Below the pieces are notes generated by a model. It was given only the letters and a program-made list of their open reading frames with translations. It was not told the DNA's origin and did no database searches. DNA of 64,000 bases from Ignavibacteriota bacterium (lineage in GTDB: Bacteria > Bacteroidota > Ignavibacteria > UBA10030 > UBA6906): the NCBI GenBank assembly GCA_016707525.1, contig JADJHP010000003.1, forward strand, positions 76,677 through 140,676. The letters are read 5' to 3'. This document shows positions 26,813 to 56,635 of the stretch, one piece after another (position 1 is the stretch's first letter; each line of letters begins with the position of its first letter). The position numbers and the translations under genes were made by a program.

Positions 26813-27601
26813 TCAGATCGTATCGAGCGCCCGGCGGAACGCCGCGGTCCACACACGGGTGCCACCCGGCGAAGGATCGCTCTCCAGCTGCCGGAGAAGT
26901 GCCGAACCCACGATCACGCCGTCGGTGTCGCGGGCAAAGGTCACCGCATCCTCAGGCCGCGAGATCCCGAATCCCACGAGCATCGGGTTGCGCGTGACAT
27001 GCGCACGCACCGCACGGACGTTGTCGAGCGCCGAACCGGCCACGGCCCCGCCGGTCACGCCGGTGGTGGACACGCAGTACACGAATCCCGACGACGCAGC
27101 ATCGATCGCACGCACGCGCGCCGGAGGCGTCGTGGGCGTCGCGAGCAAGATCCCGGCCAATCCCGCGGATGTCACCGCCGGCGCATACGAGCTCCACTCC
27201 TCCAGGGGCAGCTCGGGAAGGATCAGGCCGTCAACCCCGGCAGCAGCCGCATCGACGAAGAATCTGTCCACTCCATAGCGCATGATCGGATTGAGATATC
27301 CCATGAGCACCAGTGGGACACCGGACCGCTGCCTGATCCGTGCAACGAGTTGCAGGATCCACGGCAGGGTCACGCCGTTCGCGATCGCCGTGCCGGACGC
27401 CTTCTGGATGACCGGACCATCGGCGAGGGGGTCCGAGAACGGAACCCCGATCTCCACGATGTCCGCCCCGCCATCCTCAAGTGCGCACACGAGGTCTGCC
27501 GTTGCATCCAGTGTCGGATACCCGGCGGTGAGGAACATGGCAAGCGACCGCCTGCCCTTCGTTGCATTGCCGCTCAACCGTTCTTGGAGTTTCATCGTCA
27601 T
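26813..27601 (-). CDS. trpA: Tryptophan synthase alpha chain
   Basis: [47 protein letters not shown]. Confidence 0.9.
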
Positions 27602-28800
27602 AGGTTCGCGTATGTTGTCATATCCTTGTCACCCCGCCCCGACACGTTCACCAGGATGAGGGGTGAGCCGGTGGTGCGCGGCGCGAGCTTTTCCAGCCAT
27701 GCAAGAGCATGCGCAGACTCGAGCGCGGGGATGATCCCTTCGAGGCGGGAAAGCAGTTTCGCCGCGGCAAGGGCTTCCTGATCTGTCACGGCAACATACT
27801 CCACCCGCCCGGCATCCTTCAGCGCGCTGTGCTCGGGGCCGACGCCGGGATAGTCCAATCCCGCGGAGATCGAGTGGGCAAGTTGCACCTGTCCGTCATG
27901 GTCCTGCAGCAGATAGCTGAGGGAACCGTGCAGGACACCGGGAGCTCCCAGCGAGAGCGTCGCGGCATGCTGCCCGGACGTGAGGCCGTGCCCGGCAGCT
28001 TCGACGCCGATCATGCGTGCCCTCGTGCCCAGGAACGGCTCGAAGAGCCCGATGGCGTTGCTCCCTCCCCCGACGCACGCCAGCAGGATATCCGGATCGC
28101 GTCCTTCAGCGGCACGCACCTGCTGCATTGCCTCTTCACCGATCACGCTCTGGAAATCGCGAACGATGGCGGGGTACGGATGAGGGCCAACGACCGATCC
28201 GATGATATAGAATGTATCGCGGACGTTGGTCACCCAATCCCGGATCGCTTCGCTCGTCGCATCCTTGAGCGTGCGCGTCCCGGAATGGACCGGCACCACG
28301 CGCGCACCGAGCATTTCCATCCTGCGCACATTCAACTGCTGACGCTCGATGTCCTCGTCGCCCATGTACACATCGCAGGCAAGTCCCATCCGCGCGGCCA
28401 CCGTGGCCGTTGCCACCCCATGCTGCCCGGCACCCGTCTCGGCAATGATCCGCTTCTTCCCCGATCGTTTTGCCAGAAGGATCTGACCGATGGTGTTATT
28501 GATCTTGTGTGCCCCGGTATGGCAGAGATCCTCCCGCTTCAGGTAGATCTTCACCTTTCCGTAGTGTGCGGCAAGGCGGTCGGCGCGTGTGATCGGCGTG
28601 GGCCGCCCGGCAAAGGTCGTCAGGAGTTCGCGCAGCTCTGCCGTGAATGCCGGGTCCTTCCGCGCGTCCTGATACAACGCCTCGAGTTCGTCCAGCGCGG
28701 GAATGAGGGTCTCGGGCACATAGCGGCCACCGTACGCTCCGAAATAGCCCCGTGCATCGGGCATACCTCCGGGAGCAAGTGCAGCAGGAGCGTGTGTCAT
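27598..28800 (-). CDS. trpB: Tryptophan synthase beta chain
   Basis: [15 protein letters not shown] and PLP-binding HTGAHKINN. The start overlaps the DAHP synthase stop, and the stop overlaps the trpA start. Confidence 0.9.
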
Positions 28801-29828
28801 GTGGTGCTTCCTTCGTTCAGTGTTCTTCCAACCACCGGCGCGAGCCGGCGGATATCATCCATCAGCGCAGCAAAGCGGGATGGTTTCAAGGACTGTGCGC
28901 CATCCGAAAGTGCGGCAGCAGGATCCGGATGGACCTCGATCATCAGCCCATCCGCCCCCGCCGCGATCGCGGCCATGCTCATCGCCGGAACAGCTTCCCA
29001 GATCCCGACACCGTGACTCGGATCCACGATCACAGGCAGGTGGGTGAGCCGCTTGAGGACGGGGATCGCATTCAGATCCAGCGTGTTCCGTGTCGCCGTT
29101 TCGAACGTCCGGATCCCCCGCTCGCACAGGATGATCTGCAGGTTGCCGCGGCTCGCGATGTACTCTGCCGCCATCAGCAGTTCCTCGATCGTCGCGGCGA
29201 TGCCGCGTTTGAGCAGCACCGGTATGCGGAGTTCGCCGACGGCCTCCAGGAGACTGAAATTGCTCATGTTCCGTGCGCCGATCTGCAGCACGTCCGCCAC
29301 TTCCGCCACGGCGGGGAGGGTGCCCGTATCCTTCACTTCCGTCACGATCGCAAGCCCCGTCTTCTCGCGCGCCTCGCGGAGAAGGACCAATCCTTCTTCC
29401 TTCATGCCCTGAAAACTATACGGCGACGAACGTGGTTTGAATGCGCCGCCCCGCAAGAACTGTGCACCTGCCGACTTCACGTTTCGCGCAACGGTAACGA
29501 TCTGCTCCCGGCTCTCCACCGAGCAGGGCCCGGCCATCACCGCAAGTTCGGGCCCTCCAATGCTCGCTGTCCCGACCTTGATCACGCTGCTCTCCGGCCT
29601 CGCCTCACGACCGACGAGCTTGTACGGCTTGGAAACCGGTATCGCCCGTTCCACACCGGGCAGGATCGTGAACACATCCGCGGCGATCGCGCCGTGATTA
29701 CCGGTGATGCCGATGGCCGTCCGCTCCGCCCCGGGTATCTCGTGGGCCCGGAATCCGAGATCGCCGATCTTCAGCATCACTTCCCGGACCTGGTCCGGCG
29801 TCGCATCCTGTCGCATCAGGACGAGCAT
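28797..29828 (-). CDS. 3-deoxy-7-phosphoheptulonate (DAHP) synthase, class I-beta with an N-terminal regulatory domain, embedded in the trp operon
   Basis: N-terminal ACT/FL-like domain [21 protein letters not shown], followed by a KDO8P/DAHP synthase barrel ([30 protein letters not shown]). Confidence 0.85.
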
Positions 29829-29831
29829 CTG

Positions 29832-30476
29832 TCATCTCCCTTGTGCTTCACGTGAACGATCCCATGCCAACGCCTTGAGTGCCGCATGGACGAACGCCCT
29901 CACCTTCTCATGATCCTTGATACCCGGCGCCACTTCCACGCCGCTGCTCACGTCCACACCCATGGGACGTGCTTGTCTGATCGCTTCCGCAACATTCGCC
30001 GGCGAGAGTCCGCCGCCCAGGATCACGGGCCCATGCCCGGCAGCCGCCCGTGCGATGCTCCAATCGAACACCTGGCCGGTACCGCCATGCACACCGGCAA
30101 CGAAGGTGTCCAGCACGTGGGCATCCACGCGATATGTTCCCACGCTGGCCGGATCGAAATCGGGTCCCACACGGTGTGCCTTCAGGACGCGGACCGGCAG
30201 GCCTTCCGTCTCCGCCGGCGACTCCTCCCCATGCAATTGTACCGCCTTCACCCCGCTCCTCCGGATCGCATCGAGGATCGCGGCGCGTGGCGCATTGACG
30301 AACACGCCGACCGTCACGATATCATTCGGGATGGACCGGACGATGTCCGCAACGGCATCAGGGCTGATGCACCGCTTACTCGAAGGCACGAAAATGAAGC
30401 CCAGCATGTCGGCACCCGCATCGAGCGCGCACAGGGCATCGTCACGCCTGGTGATCCCGCAGATCTTCACCCTCAT
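29832..30476 (-). CDS. trpF: Phosphoribosylanthranilate isomerase
   Basis: MRVKICGITRRDDALCALDAGADMLGFIF. Confidence 0.85.
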   Translation of the reverse strand: MRVKICGITRRDDALCALDAGADMLGFIFVPSSKRCISPDAVADIVRSIPNDIVTVGVFVNAPRAAILDAIRRSGVKAVQLHGEESPAETEGLPVRVLKAHRVGPDFDPASVGTYRVDAHVLDTFVAGVHGGTGQVFDWSIARAAAGHGPVILGGGLSPANVAEAIRQARPMGVDVSSGVEVAPGIKDHEKVRAFVHAALKALAWDRSREAQGR

Positions 30477-31261
30477 GCGCGGACCCCGGCAAGCACGTCC
30501 CGGAGTGCCTCACCGGGATCGGGAGCCCGCATGAACCCTTCGCCGATCAGGAATGCATCGATGTTGTGGGACCGCAGCATGCGTATATCTGCAGCGGACT
30601 GGATACCTGACTCGCTCACGCAGACCACATCGGAACCGATCAGGCCGCGCAGTCGCACCGACGTCTGCATATCCGTCGCAAATGTCGCAAGGTCACGATT
30701 GTTGATCCCGACCACGGGGAATCTTCCGCCCTCCAGCGCACCCACTTCCTCTTCATTGTGCACTTCCACGAGGACGCCGAGGCCGAGTTCATCGGCAAGG
30801 GCTTTGAGCTCATTCAGCAGGATGCGGTCCAGGGCGGCGACGATGAGCAGGACCGCATCGGCCTGGTACGCTCGCGCTTCATGAAGTTGATAGGGGTCAA
30901 GGATGAAATCCTTGCGGAGGACAGGCACCGCATGTCCTGCACGAGCAAGCGCCATGTAGTCCAGATGGCCCTGGAAGAACGGAACATCCGTGAGCACGGA
31001 GAGCGCCGCGGCGCCCGCCGCTACATACGACCGTGCGATCGCCGGTACGTCCATATCAGCGCGGATGACGCCCCGGGAGGGCGATGCTGCCTTGATCTCC
31101 GCGATGACCGCGGGGGAACGTTGGCGCAGGGCAAGTTCGAATGGCCGGCGGGGCACGTGATAGCCGGGCATATCCATCAGTGCGGCAAGCGGGGCCCTCT
31201 GCTTACGGGCGTCCAGGTCCTCCTGTGTGCGCCGGAGGATCGCGTCGAGATAGGTGCTCAT
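30473..31261 (-). CDS. trpC: Indole-3-glycerol phosphate synthase
   Basis: AVIAEIKAASPSRGVI...GINNRDL. Confidence 0.9.
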   Translation of the reverse strand: MSTYLDAILRRTQEDLDARKQRAPLAALMDMPGYHVPRRPFELALRQRSPAVIAEIKAASPSRGVIRADMDVPAIARSYVAAGAAALSVLTDVPFFQGHLDYMALARAGHAVPVLRKDFILDPYQLHEARAYQADAVLLIVAALDRILLNELKALADELGLGVLVEVHNEEEVGALEGGRFPVVGINNRDLATFATDMQTSVRLRGLIGSDVVCVSESGIQSAADIRMLRSHNIDAFLIGEGFMRAPDPGEALRDVLAGVRA

Positions 31262-32271
31262 GCTCTGTTCGTGAACTCCACCAGTGCCTTGAGGGTTGCC
31301 AGCGCGCGGCCCGAGTCGATCGCTTCCGCCGCGAGGCGTGTCCCGGCCGTCAGGTCGGCGGCCTTGCCTGCCACAAAGATCCCCATCCCTGCGTTGGCGA
31401 GAACGATATCACGACCCGGAACCGGTTCGGCCTGGAGGATGCTGAGCGCAATACGGGCATTTGTTTCAGGATCCCCACCCTTCACGGCGTCGTGCGGCGC
31501 TGTCGCAAGCCCGAAATCGGAAGCTTCGACGATATACCTGCGCACAGGCCGATCCCCTCCCACCTCGTGGACCGACGTCGGCCGTGCGAGGCTCACTTCA
31601 TCCATCCCGTCATCGCTGTGGATCACGCACGCTTTGTCCGTGTCCAGCACGTGCAGCGCACCGGCGAGCCGCCGGGCCACATCATGATGATAGGTCCCGA
31701 GCACCTGGCGCCGCACGCTGGCAGGGTTGGTGATCGGACCGAGCATATTGAAGATGGTCCTGACGCCAAGCTCCTGACGCGCTTTCGCCGCGAACTTCAT
31801 CGCGGGATGGAACAACGGAGCGAACAGGAACCCGATCCCGACGGTATTCACGCACGCCTCCACGCGGTCCGGTGCCAGTTGTGTCTTCACGCCGAGCGCA
31901 GCGAGCACATCGGCGCTGCCGCTGCGGCTCGACACGGAGCGGTTGCCGTGCTTCGCAACGGTCACGCCCGCGCCGGCAGCCACGAGCGCGGCCACCGTGG
32001 AGATATTGAACGTATCGCGTCCATCCCCACCGGTACCGCACATATCGATGGCGTCGCCATCGTCGGTGGTGATCCGGACCGCATGGGCACGCATCGTTCG
32101 CGCGAACCCGACGACCTCGGATTCGCTCTCCCCTTTTGCGCGGAGTGCGATGAGCAATCCGGCGATCTGCGCATCCGTAGCGGTGCCGCTCATGATCCTC
32201 TCCAGGGCATCCGCTGCCTCGTCGATCGACAGGTCCTGCTTCTCCAGACACTTCTCGATATAGTGCTTCAT
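31258..32271 (-). CDS. trpD: Anthranilate phosphoribosyltransferase
   Basis: AQIAGLLIALRAKGES...CGTGGDG. Confidence 0.9.
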   Translation of the reverse strand: MKHYIEKCLEKQDLSIDEAADALERIMSGTATDAQIAGLLIALRAKGESESEVVGFARTMRAHAVRITTDDGDAIDMCGTGGDGRDTFNISTVAALVAAGAGVTVAKHGNRSVSSRSGSADVLAALGVKTQLAPDRVEACVNTVGIGFLFAPLFHPAMKFAAKARQELGVRTIFNMLGPITNPASVRRQVLGTYHHDVARRLAGALHVLDTDKACVIHSDDGMDEVSLARPTSVHEVGGDRPVRRYIVEASDFGLATAPHDAVKGGDPETNARIALSILQAEPVPGRDIVLANAGMGIFVAGKAADLTAGTRLAAEAIDSGRALATLKALVEFTNRA

Positions 32272-32837
32272 GACAGCCTCTCCACCCAGTTCCTGAGAAT
32301 TTGCATGCCCTCTGTGGTCAGGATCGATTCGGGGTGGAATTGCACGCCTTCCACCGGCAACGTCCTGTGACGCACGCCCATGATCACGCCATCCTCGGTC
32401 TCCGCGGTGATCTCCAGAGCATCAGGCAGCGAGGAACGCTCGACGACCAACGAATGGTAGCGCGTCGCATCGAAGGGATCCGACACGCCCCGGTACAGCG
32501 ACGTTCCGTGATGCCGCACGCGCGATGTCCGTCCGTGCATCAGCGACGGCGCGTGGATGACGGATCCGCCGAAGGCGGCGCCGATCGCCTGATGGCCGAG
32601 GCAGACGCCGAAGAGCGGGAACGAGGTACTACAGTGGCGGATGACGTCAAGGGTGACGCCGGCATCCTCCGGTCGGCCGGGGCCGGGGGACAACAGGATC
32701 CCGTCCGGCGCCAATGTTGTGATCTCGTCGACGGTCACGGCATCGTTGCGGCGCACCAAGAGATCGGTGCGGAAGGTGCCGAGTGCCTGCACGAGATTGA
32801 ACGTGAAGGAATCATAGTTGTCGATCACGAGGATCAT
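32268..32837 (-). CDS. trpG: Anthranilate synthase component II (glutamine amidotransferase)
   Basis: MILVIDNYDSFTFNLVQ...GVCLGHQAI, class I GATase. Confidence 0.85.
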   Translation of the reverse strand: MILVIDNYDSFTFNLVQALGTFRTDLLVRRNDAVTVDEITTLAPDGILLSPGPGRPEDAGVTLDVIRHCSTSFPLFGVCLGHQAIGAAFGGSVIHAPSLMHGRTSRVRHHGTSLYRGVSDPFDATRYHSLVVERSSLPDALEITAETEDGVIMGVRHRTLPVEGVQFHPESILTTEGMQILRNWVERLS

Positions 32838-34324
32838 TGTGCACCTTCCTCCTGCCCGTCGGGCGCGGCGAGCCCGCGTGAGGCGAGACGTATCGCCTCC
32901 ATGAGCACCCGCGCCTTGTTGACCGTTTCGTCGTATTCATTCGACGGCACGGAGTCGGCAACGATCCCCGCGCCCGCCTGCAGCTTCAACGTTTGTCCAT
33001 GCGCGAACACCGTGCGTATCGCGATACAGGTATCCATCGTGCCGTCCATGCCGAAATACCCCACGGCGCCTGCGTACGCTCCACGCGGAAAGGGTTCGAG
33101 GTCAGCGATGATCTCCATCGCACGCACCTTCGGGGCACCCGAGACCGTCCCTGCAGGGAAGCACGATTCAAAGATGCCCACCGCGTCGATGTCCGGACGG
33201 ATCCGGCCGCGCACTTCCGAAACGATGTGCATCACATGCGAATAGCGGTCCACGCGCTTGAAGACCGGCACTTCCACGGAACCGTACTCGGAGACCCGGC
33301 CAACGTCGTTGCGCCCGAGGTCCACAAGCATCACATGCTCGGCAAGTTCCTTGGGATCGGCGAGAAGGTCCAGTTCAAGACGTTTGTCGTCGGCTTCATC
33401 CACACCGCGGCGCCGGGTACCGGCGATCGGCAGAAGCTCCACTGTGCCGCCGTGTGCCTGGATGAGCATTTCCGGCGAAGAGCCGGCGAGTTTGGTAGCG
33501 CCGAAATCCAGGAAGAAAAGGTACGGGGATGGATTGATGATGCGCAGGGAACGATAGACGGCAAAGAGATCGCCGGTGAACGTACTGCGTGTCCTTCGTG
33601 AGAGCACCACCTGAAAGATATCGCCTTCGGTGATGTGTTCTTTCGCACGAAGCACGGCCTGCTCGAACCCCGCGCGGTCCGGTTCACCCGCTCCATCCAT
33701 CGCACAACTGAACGGCGTGGCCGGTGCGGTCACTCTCCGCAGGCGGAGTTCCAGCGCAGACAGGGCGGCCTTCCCCGATTCGTACTGGTCTTCCAGTGGC
33801 GCCGCCGGGTCGATGAAGACATTGTGCATGAGCGTCATGACCTGCCGGTGATGGTCGAACTGCACGACCGAGCCGAACAGGCCGAGGATCGCATCGGGCT
33901 CCTCACCCGCTGCGGGCGTGATAGGTATCCGTTCGATGTGCCTGACGCAGTTGTACCCGATGTATCCCACAAGTCCGCCAAGCAGCCCGTGGGGCTCCTG
34001 CACCGGTGCGATCCTGTGCGGTGCGAGGATACTGCGGATGACGGAGAACAGCGGGCCCTGCACCTCCTCCGTTCCCCTGGCATCGCGCACGGTCACCGAT
34101 CCGTTGCGGGCTTCGAGGATCACCCGCGGACGCGTGCCGATGAACGAAAAGCGTCCGATCTTTTCGTTCGGTTCGACGCTCTCCAGGATGAAGGACGGCA
34201 CCCCCTCTTCACGGAGCGTGAGGTAGGTCAGGACCGGGGTCAAGGTATCCGCCACCAGGGTCCGCACGAGCGGGATCACGGTGTACGAAGCTGCCAGTTG
34301 CCTGAATGTTGCGAACGGTATCAT
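32834..34324 (-). CDS. trpE: Anthranilate synthase component I
   Basis: ORF trimmed to MIPFATFRQLAASYTVIPLV, with the ATG at 34324 preceded by GGGAGG. Chorismate-binding domain present. Confidence 0.9.
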   Translation of the reverse strand: MIPFATFRQLAASYTVIPLVRTLVADTLTPVLTYLTLREEGVPSFILESVEPNEKIGRFSFIGTRPRVILEARNGSVTVRDARGTEEVQGPLFSVIRSILAPHRIAPVQEPHGLLGGLVGYIGYNCVRHIERIPITPAAGEEPDAILGLFGSVVQFDHHRQVMTLMHNVFIDPAAPLEDQYESGKAALSALELRLRRVTAPATPFSCAMDGAGEPDRAGFEQAVLRAKEHITEGDIFQVVLSRRTRSTFTGDLFAVYRSLRIINPSPYLFFLDFGATKLAGSSPEMLIQAHGGTVELLPIAGTRRRGVDEADDKRLELDLLADPKELAEHVMLVDLGRNDVGRVSEYGSVEVPVFKRVDRYSHVMHIVSEVRGRIRPDIDAVGIFESCFPAGTVSGAPKVRAMEIIADLEPFPRGAYAGAVGYFGMDGTMDTCIAIRTVFAHGQTLKLQAGAGIVADSVPSNEYDETVNKARVLMEAIRLASRGLAAPDGQEEGAQ

Positions 34325-34335
34325 GGACCTCCCAT

Positions 34336-34373
34336 AAAAACGAAAAAACCCTTCCTGGCTGTCAGGAAGGGTT
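34336..34373 (-). terminator. Intrinsic terminator / trp attenuator hairpin upstream of trpE
   Basis: On the minus strand: AACCCTTCCTG-acagc-CAGGAAGGGTT followed by TTTTTCGTTTTT. Confidence 0.75.
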
Positions 34374-34400
34374 GTGCATGGCACAACGATGGAAAAGACA

Positions 34401-34484
34401 CTAACCTCCTGCAGGTTGCGGGCTCATCATCGTGCGCCACCACCAGGACGACAGGTTTGTGCGATATGCGTTGACGGATTTCAT
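34401..34484 (-). CDS. trpL: trp leader peptide (27 codons, three consecutive Trp codons)
   Basis: Minus-strand translation gives MKSVNAYRTNLSSWWWRTMMSPQPAGG*, ending 27 nt before the terminator hairpin. Confidence 0.7.
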   Translation of the reverse strand: MKSVNAYRTNLSSWWWRTMMSPQPAGG

Positions 34485-34492
34485 GATGGTGC

Positions 34493-34521
34493 AATATACG
34501 TGCAGAGGGGTGTCGTGTCAA
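34493..34521 (-). promoter_or_regulatory. Sigma70-like promoter of the trp operon (TTGACA-17 nt-TATATT)
   Basis: On the minus strand: cTTGACAcgacacccctctgcacgTATATTgcaccatcATG. The -10 element ends 8 nt before the leader ATG, so the leader transcript may be leaderless. Confidence 0.6.
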
Positions 34522-34542
34522 GCGAAAAGTGGCAACGCGGTG

Positions 34543-38943
<4,401 letters not shown>

Positions 38944-39119: not shown

Positions 39120-42100
39120 CTATTGGCTGAATTTCCACTCAAGAACGCCCGAGGAAAGGCCCTTCTGGAGCTGAACTTCCATGCGCAAACCTCTGGTCGT
39201 GACCGGTGTGAAGCGGACGACATTGAGCGCGTCCTTCTCCGTTGCATATGCCGACTGCGCCTGAACAGGAACCCACGCATCACCCGCCCGATAGAGGATC
39301 CGCCATGACTGCGGTACCCGGGAGAAACCATCGACTCCATCGTCGAACCAATACACGGAGCAGGAGGAAACCGACTGCTCTGATGGGAGATCGTACTGGA
39401 TCCACTCCGCGGTCCCCTTGTGATCCCACCAGCTCATGCGCGTGATGCTCTCATCGTTCGAAGCCTTCGGCTCGAAGCCATCGGCGACCGCTTCAGGATC
39501 TTCATATCGATTGATATACGAGTAACTGATCGTGAACGGGATCGGACGCGGGCGTTGCGGCGGCACCCATTCCACCCCCCGCGCATCCGTCGTCACCGTG
39601 GGGAACGATGTGATACGGAGCCGCGCCGTACCCATGGGCACGAGCGTGAGCGGTTCTTCAGGTGCGGCCGTACGTGCTGGACTCTTCTGCAGTGGCCCGA
39701 CCAGGTTACGGTAGTCGGCCTGCCACCCATCGATCCTCCGTCCCGTGGCCTTGATCACGAACGGCAATGCCGCAGGGGTCCAGGGGAGCGCATGCGGATC
39801 CGGCGTGCGGGGTTCGACGGTGAACGACCGGGCTGCATCCACGGAGTCGAGCACCAGGCCGTAGTTCCAGGCCGTCGTGGGGAACACTTCCCACTCCGGC
39901 CACGCGGTGTTGGTGCCGTACTTTTCCCACCGTTCGCCGATGCTCAGGGAGAAGGTCAACGGGCCGCGATTCACGGACACGGAGTTCTGATTCTTCTCCC
40001 ACCGTTGTACCTGCAGCGGCATCGCGAAGGTGATCACGACCTCGTCACCCGGCGACCACTGCCTGTCGATGCAAGCGAACATCCCGCCGGATGAAGGCAA
40101 TGCGGTCGCGGCGCCATTGATGCTGACCGATGCCTCCGCGCACCAGCCGGGGATGCGGACGTAGAGCGGAAAGCGTACTTTCTTCGCCGGTGTCACGCGC
40201 AATCGAACCACACCGTCGTAGGGATAGTCCGTCCGCTCCTCGATGCCCACGGCGATGCCATCTCCTACCACCGCGCGCACCTGCGAGGGAGCGTAGAGAG
40301 AGGCGCACAGGCCGCCATCACGCGTCGCAAGCCACATCTCCTCTGCGAAGTACGGCCAGCCATGGGCGACGTTGTGCTGGCAACAGCGGTAGGTCTGGAA
40401 AGGACTGTACGAGAACATCGTGCCGCCGTTCTGGATCCCCGGCGTCTTCAGCTCCTTGTCCAGTTGCACCTGATTGGCACAGGTAAGATAGTGCAACCCC
40501 TTCTGGTCCGGTGTGAGGGCCACGGGCAGGCTGTTGAACGCGAGCTCTTCGCAGCGGTCGGACCAGACCGTACCGCCGCCCGTACGCGTGAGCATTTCGA
40601 AGCTGTGCATGAACTCCACGATCCCGCATGTCTCAAATCCCTGACGGGGGTCGATGAAGCCGGGCCGCGCATTCTCATCGGCCGCGAAACCGCCGCCGGG
40701 AAATTGGCCGTACATCCCGCGGACCTGGCGGTAGTTCCGCTCCACGGCATGCAAGAGGGAGAAGTCGCGCGCCACCGGATAGTACATCGCCGGGCCACGG
40801 AACCCCTGGGCGATGTTCACATTGTGCCAGTTCACGACCGTGGAGTCCCACCGCGACATGTTACGATGCATCTTCCCCGCAAGGTCGAGCAGCCACACTC
40901 TCCCCGTTCGGTTGTACAGCCACACCACGCTCTCGATGTTGTCTCCCATCCTCGTCTTGGGCCAGTAGCCCTCACCGAAGGCCGTCTCCGGAAGCGTGTT
41001 CTCCCATGCGAAGTACTTCTCCATGAACGGGATCACGCGCGGGTCTGCGGTATATTCATAGTAGGATTGCAGGACGTTGAGCATGACCATGTGCGGCCAG
41101 AGATCGGGCTTCCCCTCGAGCGAGGTGAGCAGATCGCGCGGGCCGAACCAGCCGTCCTCGCGTTGCGACGAGAGCATCGCCTCGATCCAGAAACGTGCCT
41201 TGCGCTGTATGGAGGTATCCCCGAGGACGTAGCCGAGATCCCCATACCCTTTCAACCAGTACGGGAGTTCCTCCCACCCGCGCGAGCCCTTTCCCTCTGC
41301 GTTCGCCCACGCGCTCGTTGAAGGATCGAGCCAGGGAGAGATCTCGGCCAGGTGCCCGACCATGCCATCGCGTTCGATCTCCAGCATCCGCTGGAGCCAC
41401 CCTTCGGGCCTGATGCTTCCGATCGGCAACCGCGTCATCGGCGTGCCCACAAGGGGTGGCCGGTTCCACTGGCTCCCCGTCGAGGTGTGCGGCGGATCGA
41501 TCACGGCATGCAGGGAGATGCCGTTCGCAGGCGCGGGAGGAGTGATCGCACCACGGTTCGCTTCAGCGACCAGGTGCGCCGGTGCCTTGACGACCATCCT
41601 GTCGTAGGTCATCAGGCCGTTACATTCCACCTCGACGTCCGTGATCTGCGTGTACACCGCGGCACAGAGCCCATCGGTATCTTTGAGCCGGCGTACCGAA
41701 CCGAGGAACTGTGCATACGTGGACGTCAGTTCCTCTGCATCCTTCATCCCCTTGTATCCCCAGTGCTCCTTTTTCCACGTGTGTCCGGGCAGGGCGAGGC
41801 CAAGTCCTCCGAACTCGCCGAGGACGATCGCGCGTGCCGATTCCGCGATCGGCGCCGCCGGTTTCGGGTAGGAATGAATGTCCATGACATCGCCGGCATT
41901 CTTGTCGGTCCAACCGCTGGCATTGTTCACCAGCCGCGCCGGATCGAGCTGCTTCACATGGGCCGTCAGACGTTCGGTGTCGTACTGCCCCCACCCTTCA
42001 TTGAAGACCACCCACATGATGATGGACGGATGGTTCCGGTGCGTCGCCACGAGCCGGTCGAGTTCGGCCTCGAACTGGGTCCGCGAAGCAGGGGTGGTGT

Positions 42101-43352
42101 TGTTCGCGCTTGGCATGTCCTGCCACACCAGAAGGCCGAGACGATCCGCCCAATAATACCACCGCGCCGGCTCCACTTTCACATGCTTGCGCGTCATGTT
42201 GAAGCCGAGTTCTTTCGTGATCTCGATGTCGTACCGGAGTGCGGCATCTGTCGGTGCGGTGTAGATGCCGTCAGGCCAGAAGCCCTGATCGAGGGGACCG
42301 ACCTGGAACACAGGCTTCCCGTTGAGCATGAGGCGTTGGATCCCGCGCGCGTCGCGTGCCACGGCGATCGTGCGGAGGCCTGCATAGCTTCCGACGGCAT
42401 CGATCGTCTTCCCATTGCGGACGAGTGTCACCTTCAGATCATAGAGGAACGGCGTCTCCGGCGACCAGAGTCTCGGGGAGCGTACACCCACACTGATGGG
42501 TGCCCCGGGTGTGCCGCGCCCCTTCCCCACTTCTTTCCTGCCGTTGAATACCGTCACGATGCACTCCGTACCCGCAGGCTCACCGCTGGCATCCACCGTC
42601 ACCATGAATGACGCGGCATCCTTCCCTGTCTCGATGCGGAGGTCCCTGACCGCGGTGGCGGGTACAGGTTCACACCATACCGTCTGCCAGATCCCGGTGC
42701 AGGGGGTATACCAGATGCCGCCAGGTTTCCGCACCTGCTTTCCGCGGGGCTGATCGCCTGCATCCGACGGATCGTGCACACCAACCACGATCTCCTGTGC
42801 GCCCGACGACTTCAGCGCATCCGTGATGTCGAAGGAGAACGGGTCGTAGCCGCCCCGGTGTGTTCCGACCCGGGCACCGTTCACGAAGACCACCGATTCC
42901 CAATCCACCGCGCCGAAATGCAGAAGGATCCGTTTGCCGGCCCAGGCCTTCGGAACGGAGAACATCCGCCGGTACCATATCCGGTCCGTGCGCTTCATGA
43001 CACCGGAGAGTGCTGATTCTACAGGGAAGGGCACAAGGATCTGTGAAGACAGGTCCTTCCCGAAAGGCGGCGTGTCCAGAGTTGACGGCAGCTCATATCC
43101 CCAGAGTCCGTTGAGGTTGAGCCACTCCTTGCGCGTCATGATGGGCCGCGGGTAATCCGGGAGCGGCTTCGCGGGATCCACTTTCGCCGACCAGGGGGTG
43201 AGAAGCGGCGCATCGGCAGGCAGGCGCCATGCGTCCCCGGCCCGGCAGAACGCAGCAGAGAGCATCAGGGCAAGCACGGGGACAAGGATACGGGAGACTG
43301 TGTGCATAGGTGTTCTCACAGAGTGAAGGAGAGACGAGGACAGTGATCTCAT
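39120..43352 (-). CDS. Multidomain glycoside hydrolase: GH2-like N-terminal region fused to a GH127-like (beta-L-arabinofuranosidase, DUF1680) domain and a C-terminal discoidin-like domain
   Basis: GH2 sugar-binding and TIM motifs (NHPSIIMWVVFNEGWGQYD). The GH127 zinc-ligand pattern is present (E-T-C in GFETCGIVEF, and a CC pair in YRCCQHNV). Signal peptide at the N-terminus. Confidence 0.8.
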   Translation of the reverse strand: MRSLSSSLLHSVRTPMHTVSRILVPVLALMLSAAFCRAGDAWRLPADAPLLTPWSAKVDPAKPLPDYPRPIMTRKEWLNLNGLWGYELPSTLDTPPFGKDLSSQILVPFPVESALSGVMKRTDRIWYRRMFSVPKAWAGKRILLHFGAVDWESVVFVNGARVGTHRGGYDPFSFDITDALKSSGAQEIVVGVHDPSDAGDQPRGKQVRKPGGIWYTPCTGIWQTVWCEPVPATAVRDLRIETGKDAASFMVTVDASGEPAGTECIVTVFNGRKEVGKGRGTPGAPISVGVRSPRLWSPETPFLYDLKVTLVRNGKTIDAVGSYAGLRTIAVARDARGIQRLMLNGKPVFQVGPLDQGFWPDGIYTAPTDAALRYDIEITKELGFNMTRKHVKVEPARWYYWADRLGLLVWQDMPSANNTTPASRTQFEAELDRLVATHRNHPSIIMWVVFNEGWGQYDTERLTAHVKQLDPARLVNNASGWTDKNAGDVMDIHSYPKPAAPIAESARAIVLGEFGGLGLALPGHTWKKEHWGYKGMKDAEELTSTYAQFLGSVRRLKDTDGLCAAVYTQITDVEVECNGLMTYDRMVVKAPAHLVAEANRGAITPPAPANGISLHAVIDPPHTSTGSQWNRPPLVGTPMTRLPIGSIRPEGWLQRMLEIERDGMVGHLAEISPWLDPSTSAWANAEGKGSRGWEELPYWLKGYGDLGYVLGDTSIQRKARFWIEAMLSSQREDGWFGPRDLLTSLEGKPDLWPHMVMLNVLQSYYEYTADPRVIPFMEKYFAWENTLPETAFGEGYWPKTRMGDNIESVVWLYNRTGRVWLLDLAGKMHRNMSRWDSTVVNWHNVNIAQGFRGPAMYYPVARDFSLLHAVERNYRQVRGMYGQFPGGGFAADENARPGFIDPRQGFETCGIVEFMHSFEMLTRTGGGTVWSDRCEELAFNSLPVALTPDQKGLHYLTCANQVQLDKELKTPGIQNGGTMFSYSPFQTYRCCQHNVAHGWPYFAEEMWLATRDGGLCASLYAPSQVRAVVGDGIAVGIEERTDYPYDGVVRLRVTPAKKVRFPLYVRIPGWCAEASVSINGAATALPSSGGMFACIDRQWSPGDEVVITFAMPLQVQRWEKNQNSVSVNRGPLTFSLSIGERWEKYGTNTAWPEWEVFPTTAWNYGLVLDSVDAARSFTVEPRTPDPHALPWTPAALPFVIKATGRRIDGWQADYRNLVGPLQKSPARTAAPEEPLTLVPMGTARLRITSFPTVTTDARGVEWVPPQRPRPIPFTISYSYINRYEDPEAVADGFEPKASNDESITRMSWWDHKGTAEWIQYDLPSEQSVSSCSVYWFDDGVDGFSRVPQSWRILYRAGDAWVPVQAQSAYATEKDALNVVRFTPVTTRGLRMEVQLQKGLSSGVLEWKFSQ

Positions 43353-56460: not shown

Positions 56461-56489
56461 TTGACATTTTCCCCGAGAAGCATTATCTT
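56461..56489 (+). promoter_or_regulatory. Candidate sigma70 promoter for tRNA-Asn (TTGACA-17 nt-TATCTT)
   Basis: TTGACAttttccccgagaagcatTATCTT, about 70 nt upstream of the tRNA. Confidence 0.45.
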
Positions 56490-56557: not shown

Positions 56558-56629
56558 TCCGCGATAGCTCAATGGTAGAGCATGCGGCTGTTAACCGCAG
56601 GGTTGCAGGTTCGAGTCCTGCTCGCGGAG
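56558..56629 (+). tRNA. tRNA-Asn (anticodon GTT)
   Basis: 72 nt. Acceptor stem TCCGCGA/TCGCGGA, D-arm AGCTCAATGGTAGAGC, anticodon loop CTGTTAA, T-arm GGTTCGAGTCC. CCA is not encoded. Confidence 0.85.
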
Positions 56630-56635
56630 CACAAG

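Follow-up and report, generated by a model that had tools for sequence, protein, structure and literature searches.

The 64,000-nucleotide stretch analysed here (the window) comes from contig JADJHP010000003.1 of an Ignavibacteriota bacterium (assembly GCA_016707525.1) and carries an eight-gene trp operon preceded by a short leader. Judged by its sequence and by its counterparts in related genomes, this leader very probably regulates the operon by transcription attenuation, the ribosome that translates its leader peptide serving as the sensor of charged tRNA-Trp. The leader is real and evolutionarily conserved and adds a new case to a mechanism that has long been established; the transcription start, the stalling of the ribosome, the kinetic choice between folds and the response to tryptophan in vivo are inferred. 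All leader and operon features lie on the minus strand of the window, and their coordinates are collected in Table 1.

Promoter, leader peptide and terminator ahead of trpE

A first-pass annotation of the window had described a TTGACA-17-TATATT promoter whose -10 element ends 8 nt ahead of the ATG of a 27-codon open reading frame (ORF) with three consecutive Trp codons, followed by a GC-rich hairpin with a U-run, a GGGAGG ribosome-binding site and the trpE ATG, and all of these elements are indeed present. The promoter matches 11 of the 12 consensus positions and is the sole such site within 5 kb in a promoter scan, while the exact pattern TTGAC-N18-TATAWT has its single occurrence in the 64 kb at this promoter. 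Transcription usually starts 6-9 nt past a -10 element, and with 8 nt between TATATT and the leader ATG the likely start is A 34487 or the A of the ATG itself (34484), which would leave the transcript a likely 5' untranslated region (UTR) of 0-3 nt. No Shine-Dalgarno (SD) sequence precedes the leader ATG, and the 5' gap is too short to hold one, whereas trpE has its GGGAGG. In relatives, the spacing between -10 element and ATG is 6, 7, 8, 9, 10, 11, 12 or 15 nt, again without an SD, so that some relatives would be leaderless and others would have a very short 5' UTR free of an SD. The transcript of the leader is thus probably leaderless or nearly so, and a transcription start downstream of its ATG is unlikely on the same spacing.

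The sequence TGGTGGTGG occurs once in the whole window, in frame in the leader ORF. As 0.73 occurrences are expected by chance, a single match anywhere is about what chance would supply; what chance does not explain is that the match falls in the 220-bp gap just ahead of trpE and is conserved in relatives. Selection on the leader is also visible at the level of the RNA. In a comparison with five relatives whose TrpE is 77-93% identical, counting only codons whose amino acid does not change, 7 of 9 leader codons also have an unchanged third position, as against 65 of 346 trpE codons from the same genomes (Fisher p = 2.8e-4). Such invariance at synonymous sites is unusual and argues for selection on the RNA, and the invariant stretches, UCC-UGG-UGG-UGG-CGC-ACG and CCG-CGA-CCU-GCA-GGA-GG, are exactly the segments proposed below to pair.

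The terminator, a G+C-rich stem with a U-tract that lies 22 nt upstream of the trpE ATG, has TTTTCGTTTTT directly after its stem-loop. Its hairpin is retained across the terminators of 14 distinct relatives, with compensatory changes at 4 of 10 pairs; within the close relatives there is one such compensation, from A-U to G-C (L166). The GGAGG-N3-ATG arrangement at trpE recurs in L001, L002, L003, L162 and L165. We also observed that both terminator arms (5', 34363-34373; 3', 34347-34357) are conserved in sequence, as ACCCUUCC...GGAAGGGU, in 14 relatives (alignment A2), well above what a hairpin needs and across lineages with only 55-65% TrpE identity. The 5' arm (CCCUUCCUG / CCCCUCCUG) resembles an anti-SD, and both the 3' arm (CAGGAAGGG) and the antiterminator strand just before the leader stop (CAGGAGG or CCGGAGG) resemble an SD.

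Two further reading frames around the leader were considered and rejected. A GUG-start ORF of 26 codons (34321-34401) has its GUG overlapping the leader stop (UAGUG), with GGAGG 3 nt ahead as at trpE, extends across the terminator and closes with a UGA that overlaps the trpE AUG (AUGA). It was rejected as a translational coupling device, for it is open in the window, L001 and L165 and interrupted in L161 and L162, and the frame is probably fortuitous. A tiny ORF, AUG-GGA-GGU-CCA-UGA, overlaps the trpE start, and its frame is not kept in L002 or L162.

Conservation of the leader among relatives

Relatives of TrpE were taken from species-representative genomes, JGI metagenomes and a protein catalogue. 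The clade considered comprises the 21 loci with TrpE at least 54% identical, from metagenomes and metagenome-assembled genomes (MAGs) of Ignavibacteria/Bacteroidota, and yielded 19 leader sequences. By eye, the leader module is present at 20 of the 21 loci, in diverged sequence, and the conservation in relatives that the first-pass annotation had proposed to look for is therefore found. The relatives share a promoter of the form TTGAC[A/T]-16 to 18-TATATT and a leader ORF of 24-34 codons, mostly 27-28, in which a Trp run (WWW, WWWW, WCWW, WRWW, WRLW or WCRW) stands at codons ~14-17 and is followed by 7-14 codons; a G+C-rich hairpin of 9-17 bp with a U-run starts 26-36 nt after the stop. A uniform detector, requiring an ATG-initiated ORF of 8-45 codons with WW or WxW and a terminator within 70 nt, was positive at 16 of the 21 clade loci, at 5 of 136 other loci and in none of 157 reverse-complement controls. 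Four clade loci were missed through the detector rules alone, owing to a three-U tract (L004, L005) or to a WRLW or WCRW run (L006, L085).

The only clade locus genuinely without the module is L086, whose TrpE is 56% identical. Upstream of its trpE (L086:180-260) we find repeated palindromes, TGTACACTAT / TAGTATGCAATGTATACTA, that are reminiscent of a repressor operator, which suggests that the attenuator has there been replaced by protein-mediated control. At the loci that carry the module, the gene upstream of it varies by lineage (a histidine kinase, a tRNA-Ser or unrelated ORFs), so that the module belongs to trpE.

The tRNA-Ser genes, with anticodon CGA or GGA, lie upstream of the trp leader promoter at L004:1867-1955, L006:1120-1207, L084:684-773 and L088:167-254, in L088 immediately so. 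Serine is a substrate of tryptophan synthase, and the neighbourhood is probably just synteny. Outside the clade, Trp leader peptides with terminators, apparently independent, are found in L091, L092 and L094 (TrpE 48% identical; ~380 nt upstream of trpE) and in L147, examples of this group being MSHNDGRVSKLDQDVRFGLFWWWHNAGSL and MSRITAQNYCTHRTNSWWWQFTTSPSESGRVFLSSS. Nearer to trpE, L089-L092 carry a second conserved element, TGGCGCTGCGC...TGGTGGCG, with WW codons in it.

Predicted folds and competing explanations

Counting the transcript from index 0 at window position 34492, we compared folds without a ribosome, with a ribosome on the Trp codons (RNA free from index 62-68) and with a ribosome at the stop codon; minimum free energy (MFE) structures of the whole transcript that allow pairing to the RNA behind the ribosome were set aside as noisy. 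In the ribosome-free model, the MFE structure is a helix, P1b, that encloses a small hairpin at index 72-93, and the terminator forms separately. In P1b, GUGGCGCACGAUGA (34440-34427, index 52-65), which starts inside the Trp run, pairs with segment 2b (34393-34378, index 99-114), and this is the MFE structure already before the 5' arm of the terminator is transcribed. In a second pairing, P1a, UCCUGGUGGUGGCGC at the Trp codons (UCCUG/GGU/GCG) pairs with CGC/ACC/CAGGA of the antiterminator strand (34448-34435 with 34420-34407). L001, L161 and L162 favour P1a as their early fold, and its sequence does not vary among the six close relatives, in which the P1 pairs are kept mostly through non-varying columns. 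Thus the overlap of the Trp codons with segment 1, which the first-pass annotation had anticipated, is seen in the MFE folds of both kinds.

The pairing that would compete with the terminator, also anticipated there, is present in silico as the MFE structure of the nascent RNA when segment 1 is masked and the 3' arm is still absent: CUGCAGGAGG then pairs with CCUUCCUG-A-CAG, that is, with the 5' arm and loop of the terminator (34414-34405 with 34370-34359; -18.8 kcal/mol, P = 0.75). The freed segment 2b instead forms a hairpin, GUUGUGC-CAU-GCACAAC (34387-34371), which stacks under the antiterminator. The antiterminator duplex itself has -9.7 kcal/mol, a value attained in 1% of shuffles. Its 5' strand would be occupied by a ribosome at the stop codon, upon which the predicted sequestration of the terminator 5' arm falls to 0.27. 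With the 3' arm transcribed, the terminator state is favoured over the antiterminator by 7.6 kcal/mol, so that the choice must fall during transcription, as the decision in the Escherichia coli trp attenuator is likewise understood to be made.

Across the 19 leaders, the predicted fraction of the terminator 5' arm that is sequestered while the ribosome is stalled has a mean of 0.71, compared with 0.39 when the upstream segment is dinucleotide-shuffled (Fisher p = 1.9e-5 when combined over nine lineages), and with the ribosome at the stop codon it drops to 0.00-0.38 (15 leaders). The signal is strong in the lineage of the window itself (median p = 0.007), in L006/L084, in L007 and in L079, and borderline in L004/L005. 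The attenuator helices are built from differing sequences in differing lineages, and the distant relative L079 offers a clean arrangement, with 1:2 formed by GCUACUAU:AUAGUGGC, 2:3 by CGGAUAGUGG:CCACUAUCCG and 3:4 by the terminator; its antiterminator, at -19.6 kcal/mol, is reached by none of 200 shuffles.

Several observations weigh against this switch. In equilibrium folds of the full-length RNA the terminator is always retained, whether the ribosome is at the Trp codons or at the stop; equilibrium folding therefore cannot show a switch, and it is for this reason that models of the nascent transcript were used. The antiterminator 5' strand is also competed for by a hairpin, AACCU-GCAGG-AGGUU, that, in models lacking the terminator loop, comes out at almost the same energy as the antiterminator, and a G-rich stretch upstream of the terminator combined with a C/U-rich 5' arm leads one to expect some pairing from composition alone. 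Taken singly, 4 of the 9 lineages give a weak sequestration signal, with p of 0.16-0.37 (L002/L167, L003/L081/L085, L082/L083 and L088), and an earlier duplex and partition-function test that used the 5' arm without the loop, since replaced by the arm-plus-loop model, was significant just for the window together with L001 and for L079. Finally, neither the antiterminator nor the P1 helices show essentially any covariation in the six close relatives, where the columns are almost invariant and covariation cannot confirm a specific antiterminator. We rate the exact antiterminator helix drawn from the folding models at slightly better than even.

The attenuation that we consider very probable would proceed as follows. 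Transcription would start 6-9 nt past TATATT, placing the leader ORF at or near the 5' end, to be translated without an SD. When Trp-tRNA is scarce, the ribosome would stall on codons 14-16 (UGG x3) and cover segment 1 (34448-34427), and CUGCAGGAGG could then pair with CCUUCCUG-A-CAG, aided by the hairpin at 34387-34371; this antiterminator would keep the terminator from forming before the polymerase clears the U-tract, and trpE to trpA would be transcribed. When tryptophan is plentiful, the ribosome would reach the UAG (34403-34401) and occupy the antiterminator 5' strand, and the freed 11-bp terminator would form and stop transcription at about 34336-34346. In the absence of translation, segment 1 would be held in P1a or P1b, and the terminator would form as well.

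The hairpin and U-run might instead be a constitutive or leaky terminator, for instance of the histidine-kinase gene upstream, with the WWW ORF there by chance and devoid of a regulatory role. That gene, coding for a hybrid kinase of 1466 aa, does end at 34543, only 170 nt before the terminator, and a lone TGGTGGTGG in 64 kb is close to expectation, as given above; however, the promoter sits between the kinase stop and the terminator, so that the terminator acts on the trp transcript, and ORF, Trp run and terminator accompany trpE also where the upstream genes are different ones. With the reverse-complement controls entirely negative and the synonymous sites of the leader constrained, we regard this explanation as very improbable. 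The trp operons of Bacillota and of some Chloroflexota use T-box, TRAP-like or riboswitch-type systems, and termination here could be set by a factor acting in trans, be it uncharged tRNA-Trp on a T-box, a TRAP-like RNA-binding protein or a Trp riboswitch, which would also account for the constraint on the leader RNA at the nucleotide level. Yet no T-box or other Rfam family is matched in the leader region at E <= 10 beyond chance terminator-like hits, nor any but tRNA in the 19 relatives at gathering score, and apart from promoter and terminator all lineages share just one feature, a run of Trp codons that stands in frame at a constant place within a translatable ORF. Such a run is required for sensing by a ribosome but not by an RNA-binding factor, and a factor of this sort seems to us just as improbable as a terminator without regulatory function.

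A somewhat larger, still small, probability goes to a function of the conserved peptide (WWWRT...RPxGG) or of the ~150-nt RNA in trans, or to a TnaC-like, Trp-responsive arrest at RPxGG-stop, beside or instead of attenuation in cis. Close relatives show strong conservation of the C-terminal half of the peptide, codons included, the pattern R-R/P-P-x-G-G/V recurs in several lineages, and there is precedent for trans functions of a trp leader in the reports on peTrpL and rnTrpL of Sinorhizobium (PMC7298713, PMC6614838). On the other hand, the C-terminus of the peptide differs in L004, L007, L079, L084 and L088, invariant synonymous sites reflect a constraint on the RNA and not on the peptide, and the requirement for pairing with the C/U-rich terminator arm accounts for the G-richness of the last codons; a trans or arrest function is unneeded to explain the leader. 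The combination of SD-like and anti-SD-like arms with an SD-less, probably leaderless upstream ORF (uORF) and the conserved WWWRT...RPxGG nonetheless leaves room for two additional roles, namely a direct part of the ribosomal anti-SD or of re-initiation after the leader stop in the termination decision, and an action of the ~150-nt RNA or the peptide in trans, which we hold to be unlikely.

Operon context and comparison with known systems

Table 1. Coordinates, within the 64 kb window, of the leader elements and of the trp operon they precede.
Feature	Position	Strand	Basis or remark
-35 hexamer TTGACA	34516..34521	-	TTGAC[A/T] in all leader-bearing relatives
-10 hexamer TATATT, 17-nt spacer from -35	34493..34498	-	Invariant in 19 relatives
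-10-to-ATG spacer GCACCATC, 8 nt, without SD	34485..34492	-	Likely transcription start here or at the A of the ATG
Leader peptide ORF (trpL-like), MKSVNAYRTNLSSWWWRTMMSPQPAGG	34401..34484	-	ATG 34484; 27 sense codons; stop TAG 34403-34401; orthologous ORFs in relatives
Three consecutive Trp codons UGG UGG UGG, putative regulatory codons 14-16	34437..34445	-	
Segment 1, predicted to be masked by a ribosome stalled at the Trp codons	34427..34448	-	MFE folds, pair bookkeeping on alignment A1
Predicted antiterminator 5' strand CUGCAGGAGG, last leader codons, index 78-87	34405..34414	-	Pairs with terminator 5' arm and loop
Segment 2b UCCAUCGUUGUGCCAU, 3' strand of P1b	34378..34393	-	
Intrinsic terminator hairpin AACCCUUCCUG-ACAGC-CAGGAAGGGUU	34347..34373	-	11 bp, 6 G-C, 5-nt loop, -17.9 kcal/mol
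U-tract UUUUCGUUUUU	34336..34346	-	
trpE SD GGGAGG	34328..34333	-	3 nt before ATG 34324
Putatively regulated trp operon, eight genes	26813..34324	-	NCBIfam and Pfam matches
trpE	34324-32834	-	
trpG	32837-32268	-	
trpD	32271-31258	-	
trpC	31261-30473	-	
trpF	30476-29832	-	
DAHP synthase gene (ferredoxin-like N-terminal domain and DAHP_synth_1)	29828-28797	-	Between trpF and trpB
trpB	28800-27598	-	
trpA	27601-26813	-	

The amino acid that the leader would sense is the product of the genes downstream, trpE, G, D, C, F, B and A together with a DAHP synthase gene, and stop and start codons overlap between neighbouring genes of the operon. DAHP synthase is the first enzyme of the common aromatic pathway, and with its gene inside the operon a Trp attenuator would also control entry into the shikimate pathway. 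The host genome was described in the first-pass annotation as high-GC and like those of the Fibrobacteres-Chlorobi-Bacteroidetes (FCB) group, which fits the GC content of the window (0.57-0.64, ~0.62) and an identical TrpE labelled 'MAG: chorismate-binding protein [Ignavibacteriae bacterium]'; the nearest TrpE-bearing genomes carry the labels of Bacteroidota or Ignavibacteria MAGs.

Upstream of the operon lie two very large ORFs in tandem, 34543-38943 (-), the 1466-aa kinase, and 39120-43352 (-), of 1410 aa. The former combines CHASE, PAS, HisKA and HATPase domains with two receiver domains, as in a hybrid sensor kinase, and its orthologue also precedes trpE in L001, L002 and the P0006 contig, whose TrpE is 85% identical. 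Elsewhere in the window, a promoter-like TTGACA-N17-TATCTT site (56461-56489, +) stands ~70 nt upstream of a tRNA-Asn (GTT; 56558-56630, +), the only tRNA gene of the window. Promoters of Bacteroidia are of the TTTG/TAnnTTTG type; the host genome appears to use canonical sigma70-type -35/-10 promoters.

With this leader, Trp attenuation by a leader peptide is extended to a GC-rich lineage of Ignavibacteria/Bacteroidota that is represented by MAGs alone. The leader is also likely a further regulatory uORF, leaderless or nearly so, from outside Actinobacteria and Deinococcus, while the understanding of attenuation itself is unchanged by it. As the family is undetected by Rfam 15, annotation pipelines will at present overlook the RNA element as well as the 27-codon ORF, and the ~20 sequences collected could seed a new covariance model (CM). 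Specifically, neither the Trp_leader family RF00513 nor Bacteroid-trp RF01692 matches positions 33800-35000 at E <= 10, the former being absent also from the whole window and the latter from the 19 related loci at gathering score, and the T-box RF00230 is matched neither in this region (E <= 10) nor in the window or the 19 relatives (gathering score); cmscan returned only chance terminator-like matches (rnk_leader, RcsR1) at E <= 10 in the region and only tRNAs at gathering score.

The concept of a Trp peptide leader is already known in the superphylum, as Weinberg et al. (2010) proposed, in additional file 1, leaders with Trp codons upstream of trpE/trpB in Bacteroidetes, with 'a loosely conserved hairpin' (PMC2864571). 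Like the leader described here, this Bacteroid-trp motif precedes trpE/trpB and is read there as a peptide-leader attenuator; in the form given in that file it derives from AT-rich Bacteroidetes, whereas the present leaders are GC-rich, with a TTGACA/TATATT promoter that abuts the ATG and a conserved ACCCUUCC...GGAAGGGU terminator. Leader peptides without an SD at the very start of a transcript also have parallels. In Deinococcus deserti, the leader peptides of 14 predicted attenuators, that of trpEGD among them, lie at transcript 5' ends before amino-acid biosynthesis genes, their start codon at or 1 nt from the mapped start (de Groot et al., 2014, PMC4007540), and in Corynebacterium glutamicum RNA-seq revealed leader peptides upstream of trpE, leuA, ilvB and aroF (PMC3890552). 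Those starts are mapped and the phyla unrelated, whereas the leaderless start proposed here is suggested by the 6-15 nt spacing between -10 element and ATG.

The first-pass annotation called the arrangement exactly that of E. coli, of which the elements of a ribosome-mediated attenuator, in their order, hold and the word 'exactly' goes too far. Both leaders have a sigma70-type promoter, a short ORF whose consecutive Trp codons overlap segment 1, mutually exclusive pairings of the 1:2, 2:3 and 3:4 type and, immediately before trpE, a terminator more stable than the antiterminator. In contrast to E. coli trpL, with 14 codons and WW, the present leader has 27 codons and WWW, lacks an SD, with its ATG 8 nt past the -10 element, and is probably leaderless, and its ORF runs through the 5' strand of the antiterminator, which is predicted to be a long-range helix that closes a multiloop and uses the terminator loop, and not a simple 2:3 hairpin. 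It further differs in the two alternative pairings predicted for segment 1, in the DAHP synthase gene inside the operon and in showing no sequence or CM similarity to RF00513. The trpL leader of Sinorhizobium meliloti (peTrpL/rnTrpL) is, like the leader proposed here, a ribosome-dependent trp attenuator located before trpE(G), and its leader peptide has three consecutive Trp residues. It belongs, however, to an alphaproteobacterium, and functions of both its peptide and its RNA in trans are documented in the reports on that system (PMC7298713, PMC6614838).

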